A stretch of 64,000 nt of DNA from Nitrospinaceae bacterium (GCA_965223665.1 OZ245011.1:3552001-3616000), one strand, 5' to 3'. Numbered from the stretch's first letter, positions 28,667 through 59,254 are shown. Made by a program: numbers and translations. Notes: generated by a model not told the origin, from the letters alone.

Positions 28667-29038
28667 TCATTTTTTAAATTCAAAATTTTTTAAGTTTACC
28701 GAACGCCCCAATCGTTTGGAGCAGTTTTTCATTATTTGCTGGACTCCATTGGGTTCTTTTTTTATAAAAGTTATTAAATGATTTTTATCAAATATTCTCA
28801 CTTTACTAGTTTCCAAGGCTTTTACGGAAGCGATTCGTGGTCTTCCAAATAAAAGCCCAATTTCTCCAAAATAATCATTGGTTTTTAAAACGTTCAAAAC
28901 TTCTTTATTCCCATTCTTTGTCAATCGGTAGACTTCAAATTGGCCTTTTTCAATGAAAAACGCGAAGTCACTGTGGCGTCCTTCATGAATAATAACTTGC
29001 CCGGAGGCTATAAATTGTAATCCAACACACACACTCAT
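28667..29038 (-). CDS. Stand-alone cyclic-nucleotide-binding domain protein
   Basis: II.EG, F.IEKG..EV and the phosphate-binding cassette FGEIGLL..PRIAS. Confidence 0.85.
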   Translation of the reverse strand: MSVCVGLQFIASGQVIIHEGRHSDFAFFIEKGQFEVYRLTKNGNKEVLNVLKTNDYFGEIGLLFGRPRIASVKALETSKVRIFDKNHLITFIKKEPNGVQQIMKNCSKRLGRSVNLKNFEFKK

Positions 29039-29087: not shown

Positions 29088-29104
29088 TGCAAAAAGTTTT
29101 CCAA
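29088..29104 (-). promoter_or_regulatory. Putative sigma54 -24/-12 promoter for the cNMP-binding gene
   Basis: Minus strand TTGGAAAACTTTTTGCA (GG-N10-GC), about 50 nt upstream of the ATG. Confidence 0.45.
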
Positions 29105-29274
29105 ATAAAGGAAAAGTGGAGATTTTTTTCTTAATGGACGTAAATTTAGAGGAAAACTTTGGATGAGATTACAAATTTTACCTCTGTTTTAGGGATAAGT
29201 TGCAACTATTTTTAAGATAAGTGAGTGAAAAAGGATAATTGCTAATTCAAGACCGTTTTTAAATGATTTTAGGA

Positions 29275-38291: not shown

Positions 38292-39506
38292 TTAAGTATT
38301 CAATAATTGGACTGTAACTTTTTCCCCGTTCTGAATTTCTTCTTTTTCCAGGGGAAAAACTAACAACCCATTTGCATATACAGTAGATTTTAACACGCCA
38401 GAACCTTGCTCTTGAGCTGGAGTGACAATATATTCTCCATTATCCCATGAAACTATAGAGCTAAGAAAGTGGAGGCGTCCAGGTTTTTTGCGGATGGTGC
38501 GGGTGAGTTGGGCTTGTACAGTCCTGGGTTCCAAGTTCGATGCGTGCATCATTTTCTTAAGGGAAGGGCGAACAAATTGTTCAAAGGAAACAAACGAAGA
38601 AACCGGATTCCCGGGTAGGCCAAAGATGGGGGTTTCACCAATTTTCCCAAAGGCTAAAGGTTTGCCAGGCTTCATAGCCACTTTCCAAAAAACCATATCA
38701 TTTCCCATTTTCTTTAAGCTGGCTTTAACCAGATCATAATCACCTACAGAAACTCCCCCGGAAGAAACGATGACATCGCATTGTAAAGCCCATTCAAATT
38801 TTTGCATTAGGTCTGCCTCATCGTCGGAAGCAATTCCCAGGTAGCTCGGAATTCCTCCAGCGGATTTTACTTGAGCGGAAAGCATGTGACCATTACTGTT
38901 ATAAATGCATGGTCCCTGGGGTTGTTCATCCAGTTCAGCAAGTTCATCTCCTGTGGATAAAATGGCAACAGTTGGCCTTTGACCAACAAACACATGAGAG
39001 CGGCCACATACAGCCATCATTCCAATATGAGAAGGCGTTATCGTTACCCCTTTTTCAATGACAGTCTCGCCTTCCTTAACATCCTCTCCAGCCAAACGAA
39101 TATTTTCACCTTCTTCGGCTTTATCTTTTGCAAGAATAAATTGGCCATTTTTTTCTGTATCTTCTTGCATGAGTACTGCATTGGCGCCGGGGGGTATGGG
39201 AGCACCCGTCATGATGCGAATGGTTTGCATTGACTGCAGTTGTTTTTGCGCGATTTCACCCGCCGCAACATTTTCCACTACTTCTAACTTTACTGGATTT
39301 TCCGGGGTCGCTGATTCAATGTCTTTTGCAATTACGGCGTACCCATCCATAGCGGAATTGTCCATAGGAGGATTGGCTCGACGAGCTTTTATGTCCTCGG
39401 CTAAAACTCGATATAGAGCCCTGTCCAAGGGAACTTTTTCAACTCCTTTGGGTTCAATTTTGGATAAAATAGTTTTCAAGGCCTCATCAACCGTAATCAA
39501 TCCCAT
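38292..39506 (-). CDS. moeA: Molybdopterin molybdenumtransferase
   Basis: NSAMDGYA, IMTGAPIP.GA, STGDEL, SGGVSVGD.D, KPGKP and GLPGNPVS. Confidence 0.96.
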   Translation of the reverse strand: MGLITVDEALKTILSKIEPKGVEKVPLDRALYRVLAEDIKARRANPPMDNSAMDGYAVIAKDIESATPENPVKLEVVENVAAGEIAQKQLQSMQTIRIMTGAPIPPGANAVLMQEDTEKNGQFILAKDKAEEGENIRLAGEDVKEGETVIEKGVTITPSHIGMMAVCGRSHVFVGQRPTVAILSTGDELAELDEQPQGPCIYNSNGHMLSAQVKSAGGIPSYLGIASDDEADLMQKFEWALQCDVIVSSGGVSVGDYDLVKASLKKMGNDMVFWKVAMKPGKPLAFGKIGETPIFGLPGNPVSSFVSFEQFVRPSLKKMMHASNLEPRTVQAQLTRTIRKKPGRLHFLSSIVSWDNGEYIVTPAQEQGSGVLKSTVYANGLLVFPLEKEEIQNGEKVTVQLLNT

Positions 39507-39511
39507 TCTAG

Positions 39512-40630
39512 TTAAACCTCCTGTTCTCGTTTTGCTTGGGCAATTTTATATTCTTCCGGGGTGTTTACATTTGTAAAGTTTTCCCGAAGTCCTTCCGGTA
39601 CAGTTACACGTTTGAACGCTAAGTCGGAAATAATTCGGGAAAGGGACAACTCCCGACGCGACATGGCTTCAAAAAGAGGCAAAATAAATTTGGGTTCGTA
39701 GATTGCGCACATGGGTTCCACGCCCAAACGTCCTTTTTTTAAGAAACAAGTTCCATAACGAAAAGGGTCGCGTTGCTCAATAATATATTGGACGTTATTT
39801 CCATCTAAAAAGGGCATATCACAGGCAGCAATTAACCAAGCTTTATCAGGGAATTTTCCCATTAAGGTCGCTAGACCTCCTACAGGCCCCAAACCGTAAT
39901 GCTCATCATTGATACGTTCGCACTGAATGGATAAAGGTTCCAAATCCTGCTCCGGTCTGGCCGAAATGAAAACTTCTTCACAATATTTATTTAAAAGATT
40001 GACCATACGTTCAGATTCGTTCTGACCATTGTAGGAAAGTGTAAATTTTGGGCGACCCATTCGTCGACTCTGCCCTCCAACAAAAACTCCACCGTATAAA
40101 GGGGAAGTTTTGTTATAGAAATATTGTTTTACAAAGTCATAAATTTTGGTGACTTCATCTCTATGAAAATGAGGTACGCCTGCTTCGATCAATTTTTTAT
40201 TATCCACTACGCCTTGGTGAATGATGGCTTGAATTCCCTTTTGGTCATCTGGAATGGGTAGTTTTCCATTGGCATCCAAAAAAACGATTTTATCAAAAGG
40301 GGATTGTTTGTAACCTTCGATAAGGATGCAATCGCATTGCTCCAGGGCATGGGTGATAGTTCTTTTTTTAAAAGGGTTTTCAGCAACCACTGCAAAATGG
40401 GCGGGATCATTAATAGTTACGACACCCGCTCCTGCTTGAGAGCCTCTGAAAGTATCCTTACCTTCTTTATCTATTTGAAAGCGATGGGCGTCATGTTTGT
40501 AATAGCCCACACGAATTTGATCCGCTTTGAACAATTTTATTAAATGTTCCAAAATTGTCGTTTTACCTACTCCTGAAAAACCGGCAAAGCATAAGAAAGG
40601 AGTTTTAAAACGCTCCCAATATCTATCCAT
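39512..40630 (-). CDS. mobAB: MobB-MobA fusion (molybdopterin-guanine dinucleotide biosynthesis)
   Basis: N-terminal GFSGVGKTT, KHDAH.F.ID.EGKD and IEGYK (MobB); C-terminal GGQSRRMG, GPVGG, ACDMPF and NVNTPEE (MobA). Confidence 0.9.
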   Translation of the reverse strand: MDRYWERFKTPFLCFAGFSGVGKTTILEHLIKLFKADQIRVGYYKHDAHRFQIDKEGKDTFRGSQAGAGVVTINDPAHFAVVAENPFKKRTITHALEQCDCILIEGYKQSPFDKIVFLDANGKLPIPDDQKGIQAIIHQGVVDNKKLIEAGVPHFHRDEVTKIYDFVKQYFYNKTSPLYGGVFVGGQSRRMGRPKFTLSYNGQNESERMVNLLNKYCEEVFISARPEQDLEPLSIQCERINDEHYGLGPVGGLATLMGKFPDKAWLIAACDMPFLDGNNVQYIIEQRDPFRYGTCFLKKGRLGVEPMCAIYEPKFILPLFEAMSRRELSLSRIISDLAFKRVTVPEGLRENFTNVNTPEEYKIAQAKREQEV

Positions 40631-40780
40631 GGCAAATATATGTTTTAGAAATAATTAGTTTTCTGAATGATTTTTTTCAAAGAAAACAAGTTAACTTATT
40701 AAATTTTCAAGAATTATTTGTATTATTTCTAATAAGGCCTAGGGTGTCAATAAAATTTACTTTAACCAAACCTTTCCCTA

Positions 40781-40826
40781 ATGCAACGTTGTAAAATTCA
40801 TTGCAATACCTTTTTGCAATACCTTT
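40781..40826. promoter_or_regulatory. Cluster of TTGCAA-type half sites (putative enhancer), including a 13-bp tandem repeat
   Basis: ATGCAAC-GTTGTAA-AATTCA-(TTGCAATACCTTT)x2; resembles the inverted repeat at 43422-43451. Confidence 0.5.
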
Positions 40827-40913
40827 TAATTCGATCCAATAAACCTCTCATTCGGGTAGAGGCCCAACGCCAATAAAAATAGAGTGTTTCTAAGTTTTAT
40901 CTGTGATGTGAAA

Positions 40914-40930
40914 TAGGTATGAAAATTGAA
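40914..40930 (+). promoter_or_regulatory. Putative sigma54 -24/-12 promoter of nirK
   Basis: TAGGTATGAAAATTGAA against YTGGCACGNNNNTTGCW (GG-N10-GA, deviant at -12), 33 nt before the ATG. Confidence 0.4.
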
Positions 40931-40963
40931 ATAGATATTGTTTTTTTTGGGGAGAATTTTTGA

Positions 40964-41938
40964 ATGAATTTAAGACGTCTGATGATTGGAATTATAGGTT
41001 TTTCATTTTTTTGGGTAAACTCTCTTTATGCGGACTCAGTTTCTTTGACTACGGCTCCAAATGTTCCTCCTCCTCTGAGCCGTTCAGAAGCTAAGACCGT
41101 TGTTATTAAGTTTGAAGCCAAAGAATTTGAGGGCGAGATTGAAGAGGGAGTAAAATATCAATTTTGGAGCTATAATGGGACGGTTCCTGGACCAATGGCA
41201 CGCGTTCGGGTGGGAGACACCGTTGAATTTCACTTATCTAACCCAGAAAGTAATACTCAACCACATAATATAGATATCCATGCTGTAAATGGCCCTGGTG
41301 GGGGTGCGGCAGTCAGTACCGTTTCACCTGGTCAATCCAAGGTTTTTACTTTTAAAGCGCTTTCTCCGGGATTGTATATCTATCATTGCGCCGCAGGTTC
41401 TATCGTGGATCATATATCGAATGGAATGTATGGACTGGTTTTAGTGGAACCCCAAAAAGGCCTTCCCAAAGTTGACCGTGAATTTTATGTAATGCAAAGT
41501 GAGTTTTTTACGACTGAACCCAAAGATGGAGCGGCAGCATTTGATATTACCCGGGGATTAAATGAAAATCCAAGCTATGTTGTATTTAATGGTAAGAAAG
41601 ATGCGCTAATGGGAAAAAACGTTTTGAAGGCAAAAGTGGGAGAAACCATTCGGATGTATTTTGGAAATATTGGCCCTAATAGTGTTTCCTCATTTCATAT
41701 TATTGGAGAAATTTTTGACAAGGTTTTTGTTGAGGGTGGAATTGGCGGAACCATCAATACAGGAATTCAAACAACATTGGTACCATCGGCGGGTTCAACC
41801 ATAGTTGAGTTTAAAGTAGATGTTCCCGGAGCATATACTTTGGTGGATCATAGTATTTTCCGTGTTGCAAAAGGTGCCATTGGCCAATTAGTAGTTGAAG
41901 GAAAGGAAAATTCCGAGATTTATAAATCTGTAAAATAA
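40964..41938 (+). CDS. nirK: Copper-containing nitrite reductase
   Basis: Signal peptide; PHNIDIH, YHCA, HISNGM, FHIIG and VDH supply all type-1/type-2 Cu ligands and the catalytic Asp/His. Confidence 0.95.
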   Translation: MNLRRLMIGIIGFSFFWVNSLYADSVSLTTAPNVPPPLSRSEAKTVVIKFEAKEFEGEIEEGVKYQFWSYNGTVPGPMARVRVGDTVEFHLSNPESNTQPHNIDIHAVNGPGGGAAVSTVSPGQSKVFTFKALSPGLYIYHCAAGSIVDHISNGMYGLVLVEPQKGLPKVDREFYVMQSEFFTTEPKDGAAAFDITRGLNENPSYVVFNGKKDALMGKNVLKAKVGETIRMYFGNIGPNSVSSFHIIGEIFDKVFVEGGIGGTINTGIQTTLVPSAGSTIVEFKVDVPGAYTLVDHSIFRVAKGAIGQLVVEGKENSEIYKSVK

Positions 41939-41979
41939 TAAATGGCTGCACGGGAAGCCCCTCCTTGTGCATGCCGGAG

Positions 41980-42018
41980 GAAGAGGCTTGGAATTTTCCA
42001 AGTCTCTTCTCTTTTTTT
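41980..42018 (+). terminator. Rho-independent terminator of nirK
   Basis: GAAGAGGCTTGGA-ATTT-TCCAAGTCTCTTC stem followed by TCTTTTTTT. Confidence 0.8.
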
Positions 42019-42040: not shown

Positions 42041-43372
42041 TTATGAAGCTTTTAAGGGAATCTTAAATTCTTTCATCTTACGCCAAAGTGTGATGCGATG
42101 AATATCTAAAACTTTAGCCGCCTGGGATTGGTTTTGACTGCATTGTTCCAGAGCTTCTAGAATTAATTGTTTGTTCAGCCATTTTCGTTTTTTCTTCCTT
42201 TTGGTCACACTTCCCTGCCAGACTTGAAGTGGCAAGGGTAAATCTTCAATTTCAATTAAGGTATTCATACATTTTACGCTGGCATGTTCTATTACGTTCT
42301 CTAATTCACGAACATTTCCCGGCCAATTATAATCCATCAATTTGCGAAGAACTGAATCGCTTAAATTTTTAATGGTTTTAGAATTATTTTGGGTCCATAC
42401 CTTAATAAAATGATCTGCCAATAGGGGAATATCCAGCTTTCTTTCTCTTAAAGGAGAGAGGTAAATAGGAATTACGTTTAGACGGTAAAACAGATCTTCA
42501 CGAAATAATCCTTTTTTAATTTGATGGGAGATATTTTTATTTGTGGCCGCCACAATTCGAATATCCACTTTTCGCGTTTTATTTTCACCCACTCTTTCAA
42601 TCTCTTTTTCTTGTAGAACTCGAAGTAACTTGACCTGAATGTTCAAACTCAAATCTCCCACCTCATCAAGGAATAGGGTACCTCCATTTGCTTCTTCAAA
42701 TCTTCCCACTCGATCTCGAACTGCTCCCGTAAAGGCACCACGGACATGACCAAATAACTCGCTTTCCAGCAAACTATCTGAAAAGGATGAACAGTTTACC
42801 TTTACAAAGTTTTGTTTAGCCCTTGGACTTTCATTATGGATAGCTTGAGCTACCAGTTCTTTTCCAGTACCACTTTCTCCTTGAATGAAAACTGTGGAGT
42901 CATAAAGAGCAACATTTTGAATGGTTTGGAATAGTTCCTTCATTGGCTGACTTTTTCCAATAATTTTTCTGAAAGAGTAATTTTCTTGAACTTTTTTTCT
43001 TAAATCCATTAACTCCGTAATATCCGTTATAGAAACCAGTACTTTGACTTGACCATTTTTATTTCTGCTTAAAAGTCCTCCCCGAAAAAGCCCTATTTTT
43101 CTTTTTCCCTCCTTAGTAAGGAAAGGAGATTGAAATTGAATTTCTTCATTTAAACCTTGTTTCACGGTGAGACACAATTCACAGTTGTTTAGGCATATAG
43201 ATTTATCAAAAATGGACACACATTTTTCCCCCAGTACACTTTCTTTTAATAAACCAGTGGTCCTTTCCGCAGCTTTGTTGAAATAAATTATTTCCATGTC
43301 CTGGTTATAAACGAATACGGCTTCATTCAAGATATTAAGAGCTTGATCTAGGCGATTTAATGGCTGGCTCAT
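42041..43372 (-). CDS. Sigma54-dependent enhancer-binding protein (Cys-rich PAS - AAA+ - Fis HTH)
   Basis: PAS domain with C51-x8-C60-x3-C64-x2-C67; [35 protein letters not shown] and WPGNVREL; C-terminal HTH. Confidence 0.93.
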
Positions 43373-43421
43373 AATAAAATTATTTAGGAAAAAGTTTTTG
43401 AATGATTTTTGGGGGCATAAT

Positions 43422-43451
43422 ATATTGTTGCAATAAGTTTTGCAACAATAT
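43422..43451. promoter_or_regulatory. Perfect 12-bp inverted repeat, putative operator upstream of the sigma54 activator
   Basis: ATATTGTTGCAA-TAAGTT-TTGCAACAATAT. Confidence 0.7.
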
Positions 43452-43523: not shown

Positions 43524-44630
43524 TTAATTCATGGGTAAAGTAACAACTATTCCACCCATTACATCGAAAAGTTTATAGTTTTTTTTGGGACTGTTGGGAT
43601 GGGAATTATGACAAGTTACACATGAATCTGTTATGGCCAAATCAGGATAAACTGCCTGAAAAAATTGATTCCTTCCAACACGAATTTTTCCAATATAAGG
43701 TCTGACGGAATGGAAACTTATTGTTTCCAGCCCATTACGTTCAAACTCGTTGGCAGGTCCATTTCTCGAATTAATGGGCCATAGGCTGATTAATTGGAAA
43801 TCTAACCCCAGTTTTTTATTTCGAATAAATTCACTTGTGGTCATTAGAAATTGAGCCGGTAGCATTAAAGAGTTTTCCTTTTTCCAATGCTCCTTTGCTT
43901 GAAGAATAGCCAGGTCTTTAAAGCGATCTACTATGTATTTTGAATAAACAGTCCTGTCGGATTCCAAAATTGAATGAATGTAATCAGCTACCACTTCTGG
44001 TGGAAGGGTAATTTTGGAGTGGTCTTTTTTTTGATAACGCCTTCCCAGTGGAAAATCTATAACAATCCCTCCCATGACATCACCTAATTTAAAATCTGTT
44101 TTTGGGCTTTTGGGATGGGAGTTGTGGCATTCAATGCAGGACTCTGTTACGGCCATGTCAGGGTAAATGGCTTGAAAATACCAAAGACCTTCTGTTTGTG
44201 TGATCCAGGTAAAAGGCTCTTCAGGGTTTTTTGCAACGACTTCTAAACCTCTTTTTTCATTTTCGGAGATAGCTCGATTATTTTCATTAATTGGCCAAAG
44301 GCTCATCAATCGATACCTCATGCCTATACCGCGATTATTAGATATTTCCGAAGATTTTCGGAGAAACTCGGCAGGAAGTAACAAAGAGTTTTCTTTTTGC
44401 CAATTTTCTGAAGCGGAAATATGTTTATTTTTTTTAAGTCTATCCACAATTAGTTTGGAGTAGGTGTTTCTTCCTGCTTCGATAACTCCATGAATATATT
44501 CTGCAGCAAGATGTGCGGGAATACCTTCCGGTTTATTAAAGTGATTGGCAAAAGTGTGTGTGGTCAGGAAAAAGTTTAAATTTAAAAATATAAGAGAAAA
44601 AATTTGAAATTTTGTACGGAAAGTTAACAT
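43524..44630 (-). CDS. Periplasmic diheme protein with two tandem DUF3365/Tll0287-like domains
   Basis: Start MLTF behind GGAGGT; signal-peptide-like N-terminus; duplicated domain with SLWPIN..N, and CIECHNSHP / CVTCHNSHP each followed by DVMGGIV. Confidence 0.8.
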   Translation of the reverse strand: MLTFRTKFQIFSLIFLNLNFFLTTHTFANHFNKPEGIPAHLAAEYIHGVIEAGRNTYSKLIVDRLKKNKHISASENWQKENSLLLPAEFLRKSSEISNNRGIGMRYRLMSLWPINENNRAISENEKRGLEVVAKNPEEPFTWITQTEGLWYFQAIYPDMAVTESCIECHNSHPKSPKTDFKLGDVMGGIVIDFPLGRRYQKKDHSKITLPPEVVADYIHSILESDRTVYSKYIVDRFKDLAILQAKEHWKKENSLMLPAQFLMTTSEFIRNKKLGLDFQLISLWPINSRNGPANEFERNGLETISFHSVRPYIGKIRVGRNQFFQAVYPDLAITDSCVTCHNSHPNSPKKNYKLFDVMGGIVVTLPMN

Positions 44631-44895: not shown

Positions 44896-45573
44896 TTAAA
44901 ATTGGTATCGCACCCCAAAATTTAATTCGTGTGCCTCAAATGAAACGTCCACGAACTGCCCTCCAGCAGTAAATGGGGCAGCAGCAGTAGGTGTAATGGA
45001 GAAGTCTCCATTGGCTGTATTAAAATAACGGTAACCAAATGAAAAAATCAAATTTGGATTGCTATCAAAACTGGAAGATAACCCTCCCATAAACTGATAG
45101 GAAAAGACGTCATCTTTATCATCGATGGTTTTGATAGAAGTAGGTGTTACATCGAAGAACTTTAAATCCACTCGGGTTACTCCAGCCCCACCACCCAAAT
45201 ATATAGCAAGATTTTTATTTAATTGATGATCGTAAAAAAGATTTCCCATTATGGAGAATGTTTGCAATTCACCATTAGCTGCAAAGTTGCCTCCTAATGG
45301 GACTGGTTGATTGGATCTTATAACTCTATTTAGTTTGTAGTGAAATTCTCCTTCAGCTCGGAAGGCCCCTATTTTAAAGCCTAAAGATGCGGCAGCATTT
45401 ACATTAGACTCGAATTCTAAACTATGGGTTACACCGGAACCGGTATCCAAAAGATCAGAATCAGAAAACTTTGTCATTCCTCCATTAATTGCTATATAAG
45501 GCCCATCTGCAAATGACACTGCAGGGTAAAATCCAAAAAGGGCAACAAGAAGCACAAGGGCTGCCTTTTTCAT
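44896..45573 (-). CDS. Small outer-membrane beta-barrel protein (OmpA-TM/OmpW-like), paralog 1
   Basis: Start MKKAA behind AGGAG; signal peptide; FRAEGE, MGNLFYD, YLGGGAG, FSYQ..G and GYRYF; terminal Phe. Confidence 0.85.
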   Translation of the reverse strand: MKKAALVLLVALFGFYPAVSFADGPYIAINGGMTKFSDSDLLDTGSGVTHSLEFESNVNAAASLGFKIGAFRAEGEFHYKLNRVIRSNQPVPLGGNFAANGELQTFSIMGNLFYDHQLNKNLAIYLGGGAGVTRVDLKFFDVTPTSIKTIDDKDDVFSYQFMGGLSSSFDSNPNLIFSFGYRYFNTANGDFSITPTAAAPFTAGGQFVDVSFEAHELNFGVRYQF

Positions 45574-45742
45574 AAATTCTCCTAAGGTTATAATTAAGTA
45601 TATTAAAAATATTAATTTAATATACATTGAATGTCAATGTAGTCTATTTTGGGTAGTATTTTTAGTTGGATGGGTTGAAGGTAATCGGGGTTAAAGAGGA
45701 AATTAGGTTAAAATTATTTTTTGGTGTAGCATTATTTTTTGT

Positions 45743-46357
45743 TTAAAACTTGAGCCTGCCACCTATCAATATTTCACTGCTCCCAAATTCAGTATCTACT
45801 CTTAAACCGGCAAAACTGAATGAAGGATCCGTAGTGGATATATGGCGGTAATCCAGGAAAACGTCAACCGTTGGGCTAATGGGTTTGGATACTCCCAAAA
45901 AGAATTGATAAGCAAACACAATATCACTATCACTATTTAAGGCTCCATCCGGGGCTAAGGCCAACCTGGCAAAACCGATTCCAAAACCAACGTAAGGGGT
46001 GAATTCTTTTCTAATATTTATGTCGTAGAAACCGTTTACCATAAAAGCCAATGCACTTAATCCACTGCCAAGAGGTAACCCTGGGACCGGATCAATCGAG
46101 TTGTCTCGAAAAGAAATTTCTCCCTCTACCCTAAAATCATTTAGGAAAGTTCCCACCGCTCCACCCAGTACGTAACCGATATCTGGATCTAATTCTGTAC
46201 CTATTCTTCCAGGTACGGCGGCACCTGAAAGAATGGCATCTGAATTGGCTCTAAAGTTTGGACCAACATGGGCAGAAAAGTACATACCTTGTGCAAAGGC
46301 ATTTTTGGATAAAAATAATAACAAAAATAAAAGTAGGATCTTAGGTGCTTTTTTCAT
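45743..46357 (-). CDS. Small outer-membrane beta-barrel protein, paralog 2
   Basis: Start MKKAPK behind GGGGGA; FRVEGE, MVNGFYD, PYVGFGIG and FAYQ..G; terminal Phe. Confidence 0.85.
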   Translation of the reverse strand: MKKAPKILLLFLLLFLSKNAFAQGMYFSAHVGPNFRANSDAILSGAAVPGRIGTELDPDIGYVLGGAVGTFLNDFRVEGEISFRDNSIDPVPGLPLGSGLSALAFMVNGFYDINIRKEFTPYVGFGIGFARLALAPDGALNSDSDIVFAYQFFLGVSKPISPTVDVFLDYRHISTTDPSFSFAGLRVDTEFGSSEILIGGRLKF

Positions 46358-46477
46358 ATATCCCCCGATGGATGAAGGTGAAATTGTAAGGAGGCCTTTA
46401 TTAGAAAATATTTCATCCCATCTTGTCAATATAGAAGTACCTCTAAATGGTTATAAAAGGATAGAATAGAAAAAATA

Positions 46478-47089
46478 TTATTCGAATAGAAAACGAAACC
46501 CGCCATTGATTTGATGACTTTCAAATTCTGCTTCCATTAGGCCTGTAGGGGTCATAAACTCTGGTTCAGAAGTACCAAAATAGCGATATCCCAAAGTAAG
46601 TGAGAAACCATTCCAGACCGGAATTATGAACCCCCCACTTATCTGGTAGGCTAAAACAGTGTCATCCTGGTTTAAAAGGGTTCCAAACACCAAAGCATCC
46701 AGGTTTACTCTGGAAAAACCCACCCCTAATCCCACATAAGGTATTATTGGCCATTCCACATCAAAATCAGTCCATAAATTGAATAAAACATTAGAGGCAT
46801 TCATGGTTGACCTCCCCCCAATTGCAGGATCAAATGAATTTTTTTGAAACCCAATTTCTGTTTCCAGGCGGAGATTATTTTCAAACTTATAGCCTACTGC
46901 AACCCCAAAATTATAGCCTGGATTAAAACTTTGTTGAATAACTGCCATGGTGGAATTATTAGTGATATCAGTTGAAGGACGAACCGATAGACCAATTTGT
47001 CCGGCAATATAAATTCCCCTCTCTGCAAAAAGCACATTTGGAGAGAGTAAAGTTATTAAGAGAAAGAAAATAGGAAGGAAACGATTCAT
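46478..47089 (-). CDS. Small outer-membrane beta-barrel protein, paralog 3
   Basis: Signal peptide; GYKF, LRLETE, PYVGLGVG, LAYQ..G and GYRYFGT. Confidence 0.85.
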   Translation of the reverse strand: MNRFLPIFFLLITLLSPNVLFAERGIYIAGQIGLSVRPSTDITNNSTMAVIQQSFNPGYNFGVAVGYKFENNLRLETEIGFQKNSFDPAIGGRSTMNASNVLFNLWTDFDVEWPIIPYVGLGVGFSRVNLDALVFGTLLNQDDTVLAYQISGGFIIPVWNGFSLTLGYRYFGTSEPEFMTPTGLMEAEFESHQINGGFRFLFE

Positions 47090-47180: not shown

Positions 47181-49250
47181 TCAAATTTGGTTTACCAGTT
47201 TTACAATATGTTGCTTCTCGGAGGAAGAAATAGAATAGGTACCAAATCGATTCCTTTCATAAAATTGACCAATTTCCTTAACTATTTGAAGTTTTTCCAG
47301 AGGTAGTTTGCTTAGATGAAATAAATACTCATGGTGTGTCCAGTTTTGTTTTTTGGGAAATCCTTGTTTTTCTAATTTATATAGCATCTTCTTATAGGCT
47401 CTTACAGAAAAGGGTGTTGAAGAGTTATCCCAATAGAATTTCCAGAAAGAACTTTTTTTGAGAACCCAAAAAAGGATTAATAAAATTACAAGGACAATGA
47501 TAAAAAAACTAGGGTTACCTAATATTTTTTGAATCCCTTCCTTTTTAAAGGGATCCATTGAATGAAAATCTTTTACAATTTGATTTGTTTTTTCATCAAA
47601 AAACTTAACAATTTTTAATTGGTCGTTAAATGAATATTTTAAAACGTATTTTTGCCAAAGGAACTTAATCCTGTCAAAGTTATGTTCTAAAGAGCTAATT
47701 TCTTCATCAAAGGTACTACCGGCAGAGGGGGTAGGATCAAATACAATCCATCCTTTTCCAGAAATATAAGCTTCCACCCAAGAATGTGCATGAGCTTGTC
47801 TCACCACCATGTAATTTCCCAACTCGTTTCTTTCCACTCCAAGGAAACCGTTTACAATTCTTGCCGGAATACCATTTAGTCTTAAAAGAATTACCATGGC
47901 AGAGGCAAAGTATTCACAATGGCCTTCTTTGTTTACAAAAAGAAACTCATCTAAAGGAGAAAGTTTTGTATGCTTTTTCATATTTAAGGTGTAGCCAAAC
48001 TTGGTTTTGAAAAACTTAAGAATTTTTTCACCTTTTGTATATTCGGAATCTTGAAGCTTCACTAATTTTTTTGCCAGCGTTTTAATTTGGGGGCTTAAGT
48101 TGGGTAATTGCAAATATCGATTTGGAAATAGATGAGTTGAGGGTTTTGGAGTTGTTCTAATAAAACTCTGATTAGTAGAATTTAATTGTGACTTAAAAAT
48201 CCATTTTTGGGGTCCTGAAATAGGTTCGGGAATTTTCAAATTGTAAGATTGATCTCTATTTAACCAACGGATGGGGCCATTAATATAGCTGGGAATTCCT
48301 AGAGTAAAAATAATGGGAGTGTTATGAGATTCAACAAAGACTTCTTGCTCCACTATAGTTTCGGGATCTTGAGGATTGAAAAATACAATACCGTTTTGGT
48401 TTAAATTGATAAATGGATTTATCGAGGGAACAGTGGATAACCAAGATTGCCCATCATAATGATCCAGTGCAACTCCCCTCCAATAAACCTTAAATGGTGG
48501 ATAATAAGGTTTGCCGTTACGTTTAAACATTACTCTCATAACGACTTCATTATTTTGTTTAATACGACCGACATCTCCCAAATGAACATTACTCGAAAAC
48601 CCACTCATGGGACCTTTTGAATTAGAAAAATTAATGAATCCCATACCCAATCGAGGAAATGCTGTGAAGATAACTCCTGTAAGAATTAAGCTCAATAGGA
48701 CCACTCCAGTGGAGATACCAATTAGTGGGAATCCAATAGTTTCATTTTCACCAACGTTTCTAAAATCTTTTGGGGGACTGGAACTTCCCACTCTCTCAGC
48801 AAGTACGTTATAAAAAATGAAACTCCAGCAAAGGGAAAAATAAAACATTAAAAAAAGTGCACCAAAGAAAATATCCTGAACAAAAACGGCTCCCACCAAC
48901 AAACAAATTACTGAAACAAGATACCCATAAAGGTAATCATTGAATTCTGTTTTAAATATAAATCTTGTAATTAACAGAAATAGTGATATTCCGATCAAAA
49001 AACCAATAATAGGAGGCTGAAACAGATAATAGATTAAAGGAAGAATGACCAACCAAAGCTTCCAGGAAGTGAGTCCTATAGGAGGGTTCACTGGAATTTT
49101 TTTCAAAAGTTCTAAAACATAACATAATGCCAAAATTCCCAATAGTGCTAGCCCAGGGAAATAGGATAGAATTTCGGCCATGATGAGACAGGATATACCT
49201 AAACCTGCCAAAACATAGTTAAGTGATATAAAACTGGTCCTGAGGTTCAT
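47181..49250 (-). CDS. TgpA-like transglutaminase membrane protein (DUF3488 + transglutaminase core + DUF4129)
   Basis: TM region, FPR, GFS..V.LG, YWRG, GHCEYFASAM (Cys), AHSWVEAY (His) and FDPTP (Asp). Confidence 0.9.
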   Translation of the reverse strand: MNLRTSFISLNYVLAGLGISCLIMAEILSYFPGLALLGILALCYVLELLKKIPVNPPIGLTSWKLWLVILPLIYYLFQPPIIGFLIGISLFLLITRFIFKTEFNDYLYGYLVSVICLLVGAVFVQDIFFGALFLMFYFSLCWSFIFYNVLAERVGSSSPPKDFRNVGENETIGFPLIGISTGVVLLSLILTGVIFTAFPRLGMGFINFSNSKGPMSGFSSNVHLGDVGRIKQNNEVVMRVMFKRNGKPYYPPFKVYWRGVALDHYDGQSWLSTVPSINPFINLNQNGIVFFNPQDPETIVEQEVFVESHNTPIIFTLGIPSYINGPIRWLNRDQSYNLKIPEPISGPQKWIFKSQLNSTNQSFIRTTPKPSTHLFPNRYLQLPNLSPQIKTLAKKLVKLQDSEYTKGEKILKFFKTKFGYTLNMKKHTKLSPLDEFLFVNKEGHCEYFASAMVILLRLNGIPARIVNGFLGVERNELGNYMVVRQAHAHSWVEAYISGKGWIVFDPTPSAGSTFDEEISSLEHNFDRIKFLWQKYVLKYSFNDQLKIVKFFDEKTNQIVKDFHSMDPFKKEGIQKILGNPSFFIIVLVILLILFWVLKKSSFWKFYWDNSSTPFSVRAYKKMLYKLEKQGFPKKQNWTHHEYLFHLSKLPLEKLQIVKEIGQFYERNRFGTYSISSSEKQHIVKLVNQI

Positions 49251-49394: not shown

Positions 49395-49949
49395 ATGCGA
49401 AAACTGATTATTTTGGGATTTTCATTCTTTTTTGCGGCGTGGTTCAGTGCTTCAATAGTGTTAGCTAATGAAATCGCGGTCATTGAAACTAAATTTGGAA
49501 ATATTCAAATTGAGTTTTTCGAAGATAAGGCACCAGGGCATGTGAAAAACTTTAAAGATTTGGCCAAAAAAGGAGTTTATGATGGAACGACCTTTCACCG
49601 TGTTATTCCTGGATTTATGATCCAGGGAGGTGATCCTAATTCCAAAAGTGAAGATCGTTCTCAACATGGAATGGGAGGCCCTGGTTACACTATCAAAGCT
49701 GAATTTAATAATGTTCACCATGATAGAGGAATATTGTCTATGGCGAGAGCGGGACATCCTGATAGCGCTGGAAGCCAATTCTTTATTGTGGTAAAAGATG
49801 CTCACTTCCTGGATAAAAAATATACAGTATTTGGGCGTGTGACCCAGGGAATGGAAGTGGCAGATAAAATTGTAAATCAAAAGCGTGACCGCAATGACAA
49901 TCCGCTTGAGCGAATTGAAATGAAGGTTACCATTAAAAATGAAAAATAA
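49395..49949 (+). CDS. Cyclophilin-type PPIase, exported
   Basis: Signal peptide; FHRVIPGFMIQGGDP, LSMAR, SAGSQFFI and YTVFG. Confidence 0.93.
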   Translation: MRKLIILGFSFFFAAWFSASIVLANEIAVIETKFGNIQIEFFEDKAPGHVKNFKDLAKKGVYDGTTFHRVIPGFMIQGGDPNSKSEDRSQHGMGGPGYTIKAEFNNVHHDRGILSMARAGHPDSAGSQFFIVVKDAHFLDKKYTVFGRVTQGMEVADKIVNQKRDRNDNPLERIEMKVTIKNEK

Positions 49950-49970: not shown

Positions 49971-50459
49971 ATGTCTAAAGAAATTGCGGTGATTGAAACC
50001 GTTCATGGAAATATAGAACTAGAGTTTTTTGAAGATAAAGCACCTGGCCATGTTAAAAACTTTAAGGACTTAGCAAATGATGGTTTTTATAATGGCACCA
50101 CATTTCATCGCGTTATTCCCGGGTTTATGATTCAAGGTGGGGATCCGAATTCTAAAAGTGAAGACAAATCTCAGCATGGGATGGGTGGACCGGGTTACAC
50201 AATTGATGCAGAATTTAACGACGTCAAACATGATAGAGGTGTGTTATCCATGGCACGGTCACAAGATCCGAACAGTGCGGGCTCACAGTTTTTTATTTGT
50301 GTCAAAGATGCCCATTTTTTAGATGGTCAATACACGGCTTTTGGAAGAGTGGTTAATGGGATGGATGTAGCCGACAAGATTGTAAACGAAGCACGAGACG
50401 GGAATGATAACCCTAATCAAAGAATGGAAATGGTTTCTGTCACTGTTAAAGAAGCTTAA
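49971..50459 (+). CDS. Cyclophilin-type PPIase, cytoplasmic
   Basis: Same motifs as the upstream paralog, without a signal peptide. Confidence 0.93.
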   Translation: MSKEIAVIETVHGNIELEFFEDKAPGHVKNFKDLANDGFYNGTTFHRVIPGFMIQGGDPNSKSEDKSQHGMGGPGYTIDAEFNDVKHDRGVLSMARSQDPNSAGSQFFICVKDAHFLDGQYTAFGRVVNGMDVADKIVNEARDGNDNPNQRMEMVSVTVKEA

Positions 50460-54091: not shown

Positions 54092-54526
54092 ATGAAGAGA
54101 TCAGTTATTTTTGTAGTATTCATGGTATTGACGTTCTTTTTGGCAAGTCACGCTTTTGCAGGCGCTAAATGTCCGCAACCGCGTAAAACCAAAAAGGCCC
54201 CTGCAAATATTTATAACGCTGACAAAACTGGAAGTGCTGATGCAGCAAAAGGTAAAGCAATTTTTACCAAAAAAGCTAAGCCAATGGCCTGTAAAATGTG
54301 TCATGGTGATAAAGGGGATGGAACTGGTAAATTAGGAAAAGCGTTGAAACCCGCTCCACGTAACTTTGCCTGTGCGGACACCATGAAAGATGTTACACCA
54401 GGACAAATGTTTTGGATTATTAAAAATGGTTCAAAAGGTACCGGTATGGCACCTTTCGGTAAAACTTTGAAAGATAATGATATTTGGGATGTAATCAAAT
54501 ACATCCGTTCTGACTTAATGAAGTAA
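54092..54526 (+). CDS. Periplasmic monoheme cytochrome c
   Basis: AAGGA SD, signal peptide, CKMCH, P.PRNF, distal Met in GTGMAPF, and W.VI.YIR. Confidence 0.92.
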   Translation: MKRSVIFVVFMVLTFFLASHAFAGAKCPQPRKTKKAPANIYNADKTGSADAAKGKAIFTKKAKPMACKMCHGDKGDGTGKLGKALKPAPRNFACADTMKDVTPGQMFWIIKNGSKGTGMAPFGKTLKDNDIWDVIKYIRSDLMK

Positions 54527-57150: not shown

Positions 57151-57678
57151 GTGGACGGTTTAAATGAGGGCCTTATGAGGCGAACTGCTCCTTTGTTTCT
57201 ATGTGGAATTTTTCTAATTTTATCAGTGGTGTATAACCAGCCACTTCTGGCTGAAGGCTTTCCACAATTGGACCGTCTACCCGATGCCACAAGTAATTTA
57301 ATTCCTAAAGAACCTGGTTGGAAAGATCCCACTTATCGGGGTTGGGAGTTAGTCAGTATTCCAGGACTGATATCTACTTATTATGATTTAAATTTAGATG
57401 GCAAATTAGATTATCAGGTAATTCGAAAAATAATACGCAAGGCTTCTAATGAAGAATTAAGCATTAAGGAAGCAGTAAAAATAGCTAAATTTGACGATTT
57501 AGCAATTTATGTTTCTTATCCGGTAATTTATTTTACAAATAAGAATCCTCTTTTTTATTGTAAGGGTTTAGATTTCCGGAAAAACTGTAACCACATCTGG
57601 ATTGATATTGCAGAGGATGGCCTAAATGGCAATGAAACGTTATATACTTTATCCCGGCCTCGCCCTTTTGTCCGATAA
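57151..57678 (+). CDS. Exported hypothetical protein with a DxNxDG motif (start may be ATG 57175)
   Basis: Signal peptide MRRTAPLF...LLA; YDLNLDGKLD. Confidence 0.6.
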   Translation: MDGLNEGLMRRTAPLFLCGIFLILSVVYNQPLLAEGFPQLDRLPDATSNLIPKEPGWKDPTYRGWELVSIPGLISTYYDLNLDGKLDYQVIRKIIRKASNEELSIKEAVKIAKFDDLAIYVSYPVIYFTNKNPLFYCKGLDFRKNCNHIWIDIAEDGLNGNETLYTLSRPRPFVR

Positions 57679-59254
57679 AAAACCAATAATCTGGACATTC
57701 CAATTAATTATAATCTTTTGCGGATTCCTGGGATTCGTGGCAACCAATGGTTTTGCGCATTCTAATGAGGAATCAGTATTTAAAGAAGAAGCGACCTCTC
57801 AGGAAAATCATTCCGGACACAGTCATGGAAGTAGAGGAATCTCAAAAAACATAGGTGCAACCGTTTACAAGCATATGTGTGTCTTTTGTCATGGAGAAGA
57901 CGGTAATGGCGGGGGTAAGGCCATGGCTTATTTATATCCCTGGCCGCGAGATTTTCGAAAAGGAGTTTTTAAACATCGGTCCACTCCTTCTGGTTCACTC
58001 CCTTTAGATGAAGATATTATACGAACCATAGCTCGTGGAATTCCAGGAACTGCTATGCCTGCATGGGAAGGGGCTTTGACTGAAGATGAGATGGCTTCAG
58101 TGGTGAGTTATTTAAAAAGCTTCTCAAATCGGTTTGAAACAGAAAAACCAAAAAAACCCGTTGTTCCGGGTACACCTCCTTCTACCACAGATGATGCGAT
58201 TAAACATGGTGAGCAAATTTATAAAGAAATGCGTTGCGCCCGTTGTCATGGTACTGATTTAAAGGGAAGTGGCCCTATGGCTGGCAATCTTTACGATATT
58301 TGGGATCATCGGGCATTTGTCTATGATCTAACTAACCCAAATACCATAAAGTTTGGTTATGCTAAACAAGATATTTATATGACTCTTTCTACAGGCTTAG
58401 ATGGGACTCCTATGAAAGCCTATAGTCATTTGACCGATGAAGAAAGATGGGATCTTGCCACCTATGTGCATTCCAAAATAAAAATTGAAGAATTTCAAGA
58501 AGCAAAATATGAAACTGATTTGTATTCTAAAAAAGTGGATGCAGATGTAAAGATTGAACCTGATGATCCCATTTGGGCGGATGCGCCTAGTCAAAACGTT
58601 CAATTAATTGCTCTTAATGCTCGTAAACAGCAAATCAATCGAATAAAGTTTCAATCGTTGATTAACGATAAAAAAATATTTGTTCGTGTAGAATGGGACG
58701 ATCCTACCCCTAATAAATCTTCCAGCCGCCATCAGGATTTTAAAGATGCTGTTGCTTTGGAGTTTGCCCTTGGAGATGTTCTTCTCCATACCCATGGTCA
58801 CAATGAACCTTTTTTTGGAATGGGGAACCGTGCGAAACCCGTAAATATTTGGCAATGGCGGGCCGATTGGCAACAGGAAATAGAAACGAAAAAAGAATTA
58901 GAATATGCCACTAAAGGAATGGATATGGATGTGATGATTTTTGGTGGCGAAGTCAATCCGGTGGAATCTTTAAACCCTTTCCGAGAGGTTCCTATTGAAG
59001 AGCTCAACGCCGAAGGCTTTGGAACCCTGACTCCCCAACCTAAAACCAAGCAGAATATTACTGGAAAAGGTGTTTGGAAGGATGGCAAATGGAGCGTGGT
59101 TTTTGAAAGATCAATAAAGTCTCTCAATAAATGGGATGTGAAACTTTCCCAAAAACAACCCATATTGATCGCATTTGCGGTTTGGGATGGTGCCCACCAA
59201 GATCGGAATGGCCGAAAAATGGTTTCTATGTGGCAAAGACTTAATTTGCCTTGA
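57626..59254 (+). CDS. Diheme cytochrome c fused to an ethylbenzene-dehydrogenase gamma-type (DMSO reductase type II) heme b domain; NxrC-like candidate
   Basis: CVFCH and CARCH with distal Met residues (GTAMP, GTPMK); C-terminal EW.D.T, F.DAVALEF, PFFGMG, VNIWQW.A, W.VVF.R and AFAVWDG...RNGRK. Confidence 0.85.
   Translation: MAMKRYILYPGLALLSDKKPIIWTFQLIIIFCGFLGFVATNGFAHSNEESVFKEEATSQENHSGHSHGSRGISKNIGATVYKHMCVFCHGEDGNGGGKAMAYLYPWPRDFRKGVFKHRSTPSGSLPLDEDIIRTIARGIPGTAMPAWEGALTEDEMASVVSYLKSFSNRFETEKPKKPVVPGTPPSTTDDAIKHGEQIYKEMRCARCHGTDLKGSGPMAGNLYDIWDHRAFVYDLTNPNTIKFGYAKQDIYMTLSTGLDGTPMKAYSHLTDEERWDLATYVHSKIKIEEFQEAKYETDLYSKKVDADVKIEPDDPIWADAPSQNVQLIALNARKQQINRIKFQSLINDKKIFVRVEWDDPTPNKSSSRHQDFKDAVALEFALGDVLLHTHGHNEPFFGMGNRAKPVNIWQWRADWQQEIETKKELEYATKGMDMDVMIFGGEVNPVESLNPFREVPIEELNAEGFGTLTPQPKTKQNITGKGVWKDGKWSVVFERSIKSLNKWDVKLSQKQPILIAFAVWDGAHQDRNGRKMVSMWQRLNLP

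Follow-up and report, generated by a model that had tools for sequence, protein, structure and literature searches.

We analyzed a 64,000-nt stretch of the genome of a Nitrospinaceae bacterium (GCA_965223665.1 OZ245011.1:3552001-3616000; G+C ~37%), referred to here as the window. It encodes, at 42041-43372 on the minus strand, a 443-amino acid one-component sigma-54 enhancer-binding protein (hereafter, the regulator) whose N-terminal PAS domain carries the four-cysteine motif C51-x8-C60-x3-C64-x2-C67 (43172-43222, minus strand), a putative iron-sulfur (Fe-S) ligand set assigned from sequence, conservation and the register of the cysteines of OrpR (DVU2106) from Desulfovibrio vulgaris Hildenborough. 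On balance, we consider it likely that the regulator is an OrpR-family activator in which a four-cysteine [4Fe-4S] PAS domain gates the ATPase; the protein would be active with an intact, reduced cluster and switched off by oxidation or degradation of the cluster. The gene converges on nirK, encoding a nitric oxide (NO)-forming nitrite reductase, and an initial annotation of the window had proposed that the regulator is paired with this gene and controls it; the evidence gathered here does not support that part of the proposal.

The regulator comprises PAS, AAA+ and helix-turn-helix (HTH) domains, as assigned from the open reading frame and Pfam. The N-terminal PAS sensor (residues 17-120; 43013-43324, minus strand) matches PAS_9 (E 1e-9) and PAS_4 (E 3e-5), and is followed by the sigma-54 interaction (AAA+) domain (residues 137-303; 42464-42964, minus strand; Sigma54_activat PF00158, E 8.5e-74), an AAA_lid_14 domain, and a C-terminal Fis-type HTH_8 (residues 401-436; 42065-42172, minus strand; PF02954, E 7.2e-11). 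The Walker A motif GESGTGKE occupies residues 165-172, with G165-L173 identical in all 14 sequences of the alignment described below, and the Walker B Asp-Glu pair (DE) is invariant in the same alignment. The GAFTGA loop, the element that contacts sigma-54, is intact, as the initial annotation had noted, and is read directly at residues 212-217 (42722-42739, minus strand); G212, A213, F214, T215 and A217 are invariant among the 14 sequences. The AAA+ core superposes on the structures of ZraR, FleQ and NtrC1 (Foldseek E ~1e-30, with a target-normalized template modeling score of at least 0.9). With both Walker motifs and the GAFTGA loop in its AAA+ domain, the regulator is a sigma-54 enhancer-binding protein. 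It reaches the cut-off of no NCBIfam equivalog model, the models for NifA, PrdR, AtoC and NorR matching from about residue 120 only. No sigma-54 family was detected among the window proteins scanned with Pfam, a result that covers those proteins, the rest of the genome lying outside the window.

The four cysteines are found exactly where the initial annotation had placed them. A word-seeded search using residues 1-125 only yielded 14 proteins from 114 candidates, which were aligned; 12 are close relatives (53-100% PAS identity, the window's own protein included), one of them labeled Nitrospinaceae at its source, and the other two, both distant, are activators with several PAS domains. All 14 sequences have C60 and C64, and C51 is present in 13 of the 14, being replaced by Arg in P0012. 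C67 is found in every close relative (12/12) and in neither of the distant proteins (0/2), which have Ala at this position; the fourth cysteine, described in the initial annotation as an addition to the motif, is thus real and conserved across the clade. Judged by this pattern of conservation, the cysteines of the PAS domain are not a chance feature.

The initial annotation had also identified C-x8-C-x3-C as the [4Fe-4S]-binding motif of OrpR. The available text of the OrpR paper (PMC8359166) reports full conservation of C52, C61 and C65 in the PAS domain, describes these residues as necessary for signal perception, and states that the anaerobically purified protein contains a [4Fe-4S]2+ cluster convertible to a [3Fe-4S]1+ form, as judged by UV-visible spectroscopy and electron paramagnetic resonance (EPR); the identification is therefore correct. 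We compared the two proteins by way of the printed alignment of 13 sequences in Figure S2 (PMC8359166 supplement), which gives a register and not a computed identity to OrpR itself. The OrpR stretch GRRCRDVFHSSVCDGACVL of this alignment has the same register as the cysteine stretch of the window protein; the Thermodesulfobium homolog in the figure reads CLNNC. The residue numbers are nearly identical (52/61/65 in OrpR, 51/60/64 in the window protein), and the two proteins have the same three-domain architecture. The window PAS also matches OrpR-like activators in the sample of 80 loci described below; one example is L024 (motif CWEVFRSNMCESAC), at 27.6% identity over residues 4-125, with an E-value of 2e-11 that refers to those 80 loci alone.

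The two proteins differ at the proposed fourth ligand. In the available text, the OrpR authors suggest that the fourth ligand could be a conserved Asp/Glu at residue 54, and they also mutated Cys70 of the D. vulgaris Hildenborough protein, an additional cysteine that is not conserved (Table S1, PMC8359166). An acidic residue stands two positions after the first Cys in 13 of 13 OrpR homologs (Figure S2), whereas the window protein has S53 there, and among the 12 close relatives the residue is S, T, L or V; in place of the acid, this clade has a conserved Cys three positions after the third Cys. Pooling the unique C-x8-C-x3-C instances in a PAS-like context gave 13 four-Cys and 56 three-Cys forms, and an acid at +2 is present in 2 of the 13 four-Cys forms versus 43 of the 56 three-Cys forms (Fisher p ~7e-5, a value that ignores kinship). 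Together, the common register, the absence of the acid and the conservation of C67 (12/12) make a four-cysteine [4Fe-4S] sensor plausible, and a cysteine serving as the fourth ligand in place of the OrpR-type acid is likewise plausible from these comparisons.

The motif extends well beyond close relatives of the regulator. An exhaustive PAS-only search of 1.84 billion representatives, which served for motif counting only, returned 1573 proteins at E ≤0.001 and was dominated by generic multi-PAS proteins. C-x8-C-x3-C is present in 51 of the 164 proteins collected (the fourth Cys also in 16 of those 51), and is often repeated in two or three tandem PAS domains. Proteins with such tandem motifs include P0020, P0021, P0028 and P0035, among others; they range from 132 to 802 amino acids in length and usually have Asp/Glu at +2. 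So broad an occurrence among PAS domains favors a cofactor site over chance.

The AlphaFold2 model of the regulator (mean predicted local distance difference test score, pLDDT, of 80.1) has a PAS-like order of strands and helices in the sensor. C51 lies within a short helix (residues 51-54), C60 in a low-confidence loop (58-62), C64 immediately before helix 65-72, and C67 inside that helix. In other PAS sensors, the helix-loop-helix side of the fold, here residues 51-72, lines the cofactor pocket. A sequence search of the PDB with the regulator PAS gave a top match at E 0.012, and recovered no Fe-S PAS structure and no NreB-like chain.

Several observations weigh against assigning the regulator to an OrpR-like, four-cysteine class of activator. 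The confidence of the model is lowest at the cysteine loop itself (pLDDT <50 for residues 58-62), the sequence with Arg in place of C51 is a close relative, and the Asp/Glu conserved among OrpR homologs is missing from the regulator. Four-Cys forms that keep the acid at +2 exist (P0137, L078, L030 and L045), and, because 11 of the 13 four-Cys instances share one clade, the contrast between acid and fourth Cys approximates a single evolutionary event. Finally, no canonical sigma-54 promoter adjoins the regulator gene; enhancer-binding protein genes usually adjoin their promoters, according to the available text of the OrpR paper (PMC8359166).

In the mechanism that we propose, a [4Fe-4S] cluster most likely sits in the N-terminal PAS domain, with C51, C60, C64 and C67 as ligands where OrpR would use three cysteines and the conserved Asp/Glu. 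From homology with OrpR, we infer that a homo-oligomeric activator would remain on the DNA while the PAS domain gates the ATPase; the available text of the OrpR paper ascribes a negative role to the PAS domain and describes DNA binding as independent of the redox state (PMC8359166). With the cluster intact and reduced, the AAA+ ring would, by the same analogy, be free to remodel sigma-54 RNA polymerase. Once the cluster is oxidized or damaged, whether by a raised redox potential, by O2 or possibly by NO, the PAS domain would restrain the ATPase, and binding to DNA through the C-terminal HTH would be unaffected by the state of the cluster.

nirK, for the copper-containing, NO-forming nitrite reductase, lies at 40964-41938 on the plus strand; its product has Cu-oxidase_2 and Cu-oxidase_3 domains, that is, two cupredoxin domains (Pfam), and exceeds the cut-off of the NirK equivalog model (TIGR02376, 336.3 bits versus 296.3). 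nirK and the regulator gene converge, in agreement with the initial annotation, and the 102-bp gap between them contains a terminator-like hairpin (41979-42010, plus strand) that has a 14-pair stem and, on the nirK strand, a T-run after it. Divergent from nirK are a fused MobB-MobA gene (39512-40630, minus strand) and the molybdenum cofactor gene moeA (38292-39506, minus strand), both identified with Pfam. A near-consensus sigma-70 promoter, TTGACA-17-AATAAT (40722-40750), would drive the mobB-mobA/moeA side, and it is because of this strong sigma-70-like promoter that the block is the most conserved of the nirK-mobB intergenic region. On its other flank, the regulator gene is preceded, in the same direction and across a 151-bp gap, by a gene whose product has two Tll0287-like domains and, in each of them, a single CxxCH heme-c motif (43524-44630, minus strand; PF11845, E 2e-36, in two stretches). 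The motifs read CIECH and CVTCH, translation probably begins at the ATG at 44630, which follows a GGAGG, and the protein would be periplasmic, since its N-terminus, as read from the translation, resembles a signal peptide.

To place this arrangement in context, we used a synteny sample of 80 loci, of which one (L001) is from Nitrospinaceae and the other 79 are mostly from Thermodesulfobacteriota along with other phyla. L001, labeled Nitrospinaceae bacterium and 91% identical, is the sole close genomic relative found. The co-directional arrangement of the Tll0287-like gene and the regulator gene is kept in L001, and both NirK and the Tll0287-like gene are found beside the matched regulator in that locus only (1/80 in each case). 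Because the single supporting genome is 91% identical, the adjacency of nirK carries little weight. The setting also differs from that of OrpR, whose gene is flanked by two divergent target operons, whereas the regulator gene is flanked by nirK, the Tll0287-like heme gene and mobB-mobA/moeA; the host of OrpR is an anaerobic sulfate reducer, and the family of the window host comprises aerobic nitrite oxidizers. The OrpR binding site, GGGCGYRTTTTGCGCCC, had no match in the window (0 matches with ≤3 mismatches in 64 kb).

Upstream of the regulator gene, a candidate operator takes the form of an inverted repeat whose two 12-nt arms are 100% complementary, ATATTGTTGCAA-N6-TTGCAACAATAT (43422-43451). 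Its inner arms, TTGTTGCA and TGCAACAA, are kept in L001, with a different spacer. The repeat overlaps the -35 hexamer and the spacer of the regulator's own sigma-70-like promoter (TTGCAA-17-TATTAT; 43417-43445, minus strand; 9/12 matches), which in L001 likewise retains its -10 hexamer and 17-nt spacing. From its sequence and position, we infer that the inverted repeat is the best candidate binding site of the regulator; if so, its place over the gene's own promoter would fit autoregulation. Upstream of nirK, a 13-bp tandem direct repeat, two copies of TTGCAATACCTTT (40801-40826, plus strand), lies 138-163 bp before the ATG in a block conserved in L001. Footprinting against L001 was informative upstream of nirK and of the regulator gene; upstream of the heme gene it was uninformative, because that region is 92% identical to L001 throughout, and the L001 locus ends within the region upstream of the tgpA-like gene.

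The initial annotation had described a palindromic motif common to both upstream regions. Paired TTGCAA hexamers are indeed present at both, but they make up an inverted repeat at the regulator gene and the tandem direct repeat at nirK. These two are the only TTGCAA-N4-9-TTGCAA pairs in the 64 kb (2 versus 0.07 expected, with 0 of 100 shuffles reaching 2, for a pattern chosen post hoc). Single TTGCAA hexamers are not enriched in the 64-kb window (38 versus 35.3 expected), and nor is the half-site TTGCAACAA at ≤1 mismatch (33 versus 32.6 expected). The sites also differ in geometry: the regulator has an inverted arrangement with 6 bp between the arms, and nirK a direct one that repeats every 13 bp. 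In L001, each pair has one altered hexamer (ATGCAA and TTGCAT). A candidate 18-mer common to the two upstream regions was discarded: its best match was 15/18, 10 of 60 shuffles gave 15 or more, and an unrelated 15/18 match is also present.

Neither strand contains GG-N10-GC in the 333 bp upstream of nirK (40631-40963), and the element is likewise absent upstream of the regulator gene, the Tll0287-like gene and the three porin-like genes described below. A consensus scan with TGGCAC-N5-TTGCW at ≤2 mismatches gave 18 matches versus 22.4 expected in the 64 kb, none of them upstream of nirK, and a weighted sigma-54 scan found nothing at nirK. The nearest approach there is AGGTATGAAAATTGAA (40915-40930, plus strand), 34-49 bp before the nirK ATG and identical in L001, which reads GG-N10-GA rather than GG-N10-GC. 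In sigma-54 promoters, the C of the -12 GC is near-invariant. The near-match is contained in a direct repeat, TGAAATAGGTAT / TGAAATAGATAT (40909-40938, plus strand), with 18-bp spacing, directly before the nirK ribosome-binding site; one base of this repeat differs in L001, and another regulator may bind here. The best intergenic sigma-54-like promoter of the 64 kb, TGGAAAACTTTTTGCA (29088-29103, minus strand), lies 13 kb from the regulator gene. It is ~50 bp upstream of a gene for a 123-amino acid cyclic nucleotide monophosphate-binding protein (28667-29038), and a 10-bp palindrome, AGTTGCAACT, is found ~100 bp further upstream (about 29197-29206).

A direct switch of nirK by an Fe-S activator that responds to O2, NO or redox state, acting through the TTGCAA repeats and a sigma-54 promoter, would account for the two TTGCAA pairs and for the adjacency retained in L001. 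The nirK repeat stands ~90-115 bp upstream of the conserved near-promoter AGGTAT-N5-TTGAA, which is the usual enhancer distance, and no good plus-strand sigma-70 promoter was found upstream of nirK. We nevertheless regard direct control as unlikely. GG-N10-GC is absent from the upstream region and the near-match has A for the C of the -12 GC; the genes converge on a terminator-like hairpin; the repeats differ in geometry; the pair pattern was recognized post hoc among hexamers that are not individually enriched, and one hexamer of each pair is altered in L001; and the synteny comes from a single 91%-identical genome (1/80 loci). The sigma-54 target is probably a gene other than nirK, at least as far as a canonical -24/-12 promoter is concerned. 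The more specific proposal, that an activator with an all-cysteine [4Fe-4S] PAS domain acts as an O2, NO or redox switch of nirK, through the TTGCAA repeats and the GG-N10-GA promoter or independently of sigma-54 at a sigma-70 promoter, seems to us more doubtful still. The least probable of the alternatives is that the regulator and the upstream Tll0287-like diheme gene form a redox module, through control or co-transcription, with nirK as a bystander. The same strand, the 151-bp gap, the arrangement kept in L001 and the two PF11845 matches with a CxxCH in each domain speak for it, but GG-N10-GC is absent upstream of the heme gene, where a sigma-70-like TTGATA-17-TATATT stands instead, the signal-peptide-like start would put the heme protein in the periplasm and the regulator is cytoplasmic, and the pairing occurs in 1 of the 80 loci only.

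An alternative of another kind concerns the sensor: the four cysteines might bind zinc or form reversible disulfides, in which case the PAS domain would act through thiol chemistry or serve a structural purpose. Zinc sites and thiol switches, too, typically have four cysteines close together; in a family of aerobic nitrite oxidizers, a cluster sensitive to O2 might seldom persist; and the AlphaFold2 model offers no confident geometry for the loop. The recurrence of the motif in many PAS domains, often with Asp/Glu for the fourth Cys, nonetheless fits cluster ligation better than zinc. The spacing C60-x3-C64-x2-C67 also matches that of the [4Fe-4S] motif of radical S-adenosylmethionine enzymes. 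In the homologous PAS domain of OrpR, the equivalent three positions hold a [4Fe-4S] cluster according to UV-visible and EPR spectra, as given in the available text (PMC8359166). We think a non-Fe-S role improbable. We retain the [4Fe-4S] PAS activator as the preferred reading.

Among other known systems, the sensor kinase NreB from Staphylococcus carnosus also has a PAS domain with a [4Fe-4S] cluster, which is O2-labile and presumably held by four cysteines. NreB is a histidine kinase, whereas the window protein is a sigma-54 activator, and the cysteine spacing of NreB differs from the window motif. The AAA+ and HTH parts of NorR and NifA, sigma-54 activators linked to NO and to O2/redox, respectively, align well with the regulator (NorR model NF003451, 342.8 bits; NifA model, 381.4 bits), but the scores are below the cut-offs (476 and 528.85, respectively) and the matches start at about residue 125 (128-438 for NorR). 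The sensors of NorR and NifA are of the GAF type, whereas that of the regulator is a PAS domain by Pfam; the NorR match stops short of the N-terminal sensor.

Elsewhere in the window, three consecutive paralogous genes for small outer-membrane beta-barrel proteins (PF13505) are found at 44896-47089 on the minus strand, followed by a gene for a TgpA-like transglutaminase membrane protein (47181-49250). Adjacent paralogs at 49395-49949 and 49971-50459 (both plus strand) resemble cyclophilin-type peptidyl-prolyl isomerases by eye, and only one of the two has a signal-peptide-like start. The gene at 57626-59254 (plus strand) encodes a protein that combines two cytochrome-c domains with an ethylbenzene-dehydrogenase-gamma-like heme domain (PF09459), and a separate small cytochrome c is encoded at 54092-54526 (plus strand). 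Heme domains of the PF09459 type presumably occur in NxrC-type subunits, which would fit a nitrite oxidizer. An Rfam scan of the whole window gave 0 matches.

In our literature search, we found no description of an Fe-S PAS activator in Nitrospinota, of a four-cysteine form in Nitrospinaceae, or of sigma-54-dependent nirK. The initial annotation had called the switch undescribed; this agrees with the search as far as the Nitrospinaceae four-cysteine form is concerned, but the general kind, an Fe-S PAS sigma-54 activator, was published in 2021. In their available text, papers on Nitrospina gracilis, Nitrospinota, Nitrospira moscoviensis and Ca. Nitromaricola report nirK in the nitrite oxidizers they cover, and sequenced nitrite oxidizers generally carry the gene according to such genome and physiology papers. 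The portions available of the N. gracilis and N. moscoviensis papers describe the role of NirK in nitrite oxidizers as undetermined, those of the Nitrospira paper place sigma-54-dependent regulators next to nxrAB and not nirK, and none of these genome and physiology papers, in the text available, names a nirK regulator.

The available text of a PAS classification paper mentions NreB as its sole example of an Fe-S PAS domain, and on that account the PAS subfamily looks under-described. From the distribution of the motif, it looks as though the Fe-S PAS sensor, of which the one description comes from a sulfate reducer, is part of a PAS subfamily that is much broader and for the most part undescribed. 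In the form carried by a lineage of aerobic nitrite oxidizers, a fourth cysteine appears, from the sequence comparisons, to have replaced the acidic residue, and this replacement could alter the response of the cluster to O2 or NO. The evidence presented here does not establish a link between the regulator and nirK. If that link were true, the presence next to nirK of an activator that senses redox state or gases would allow a test of which signal switches on NO formation, and nitrite oxidizers would have a dedicated sensor that decides when NO is formed.

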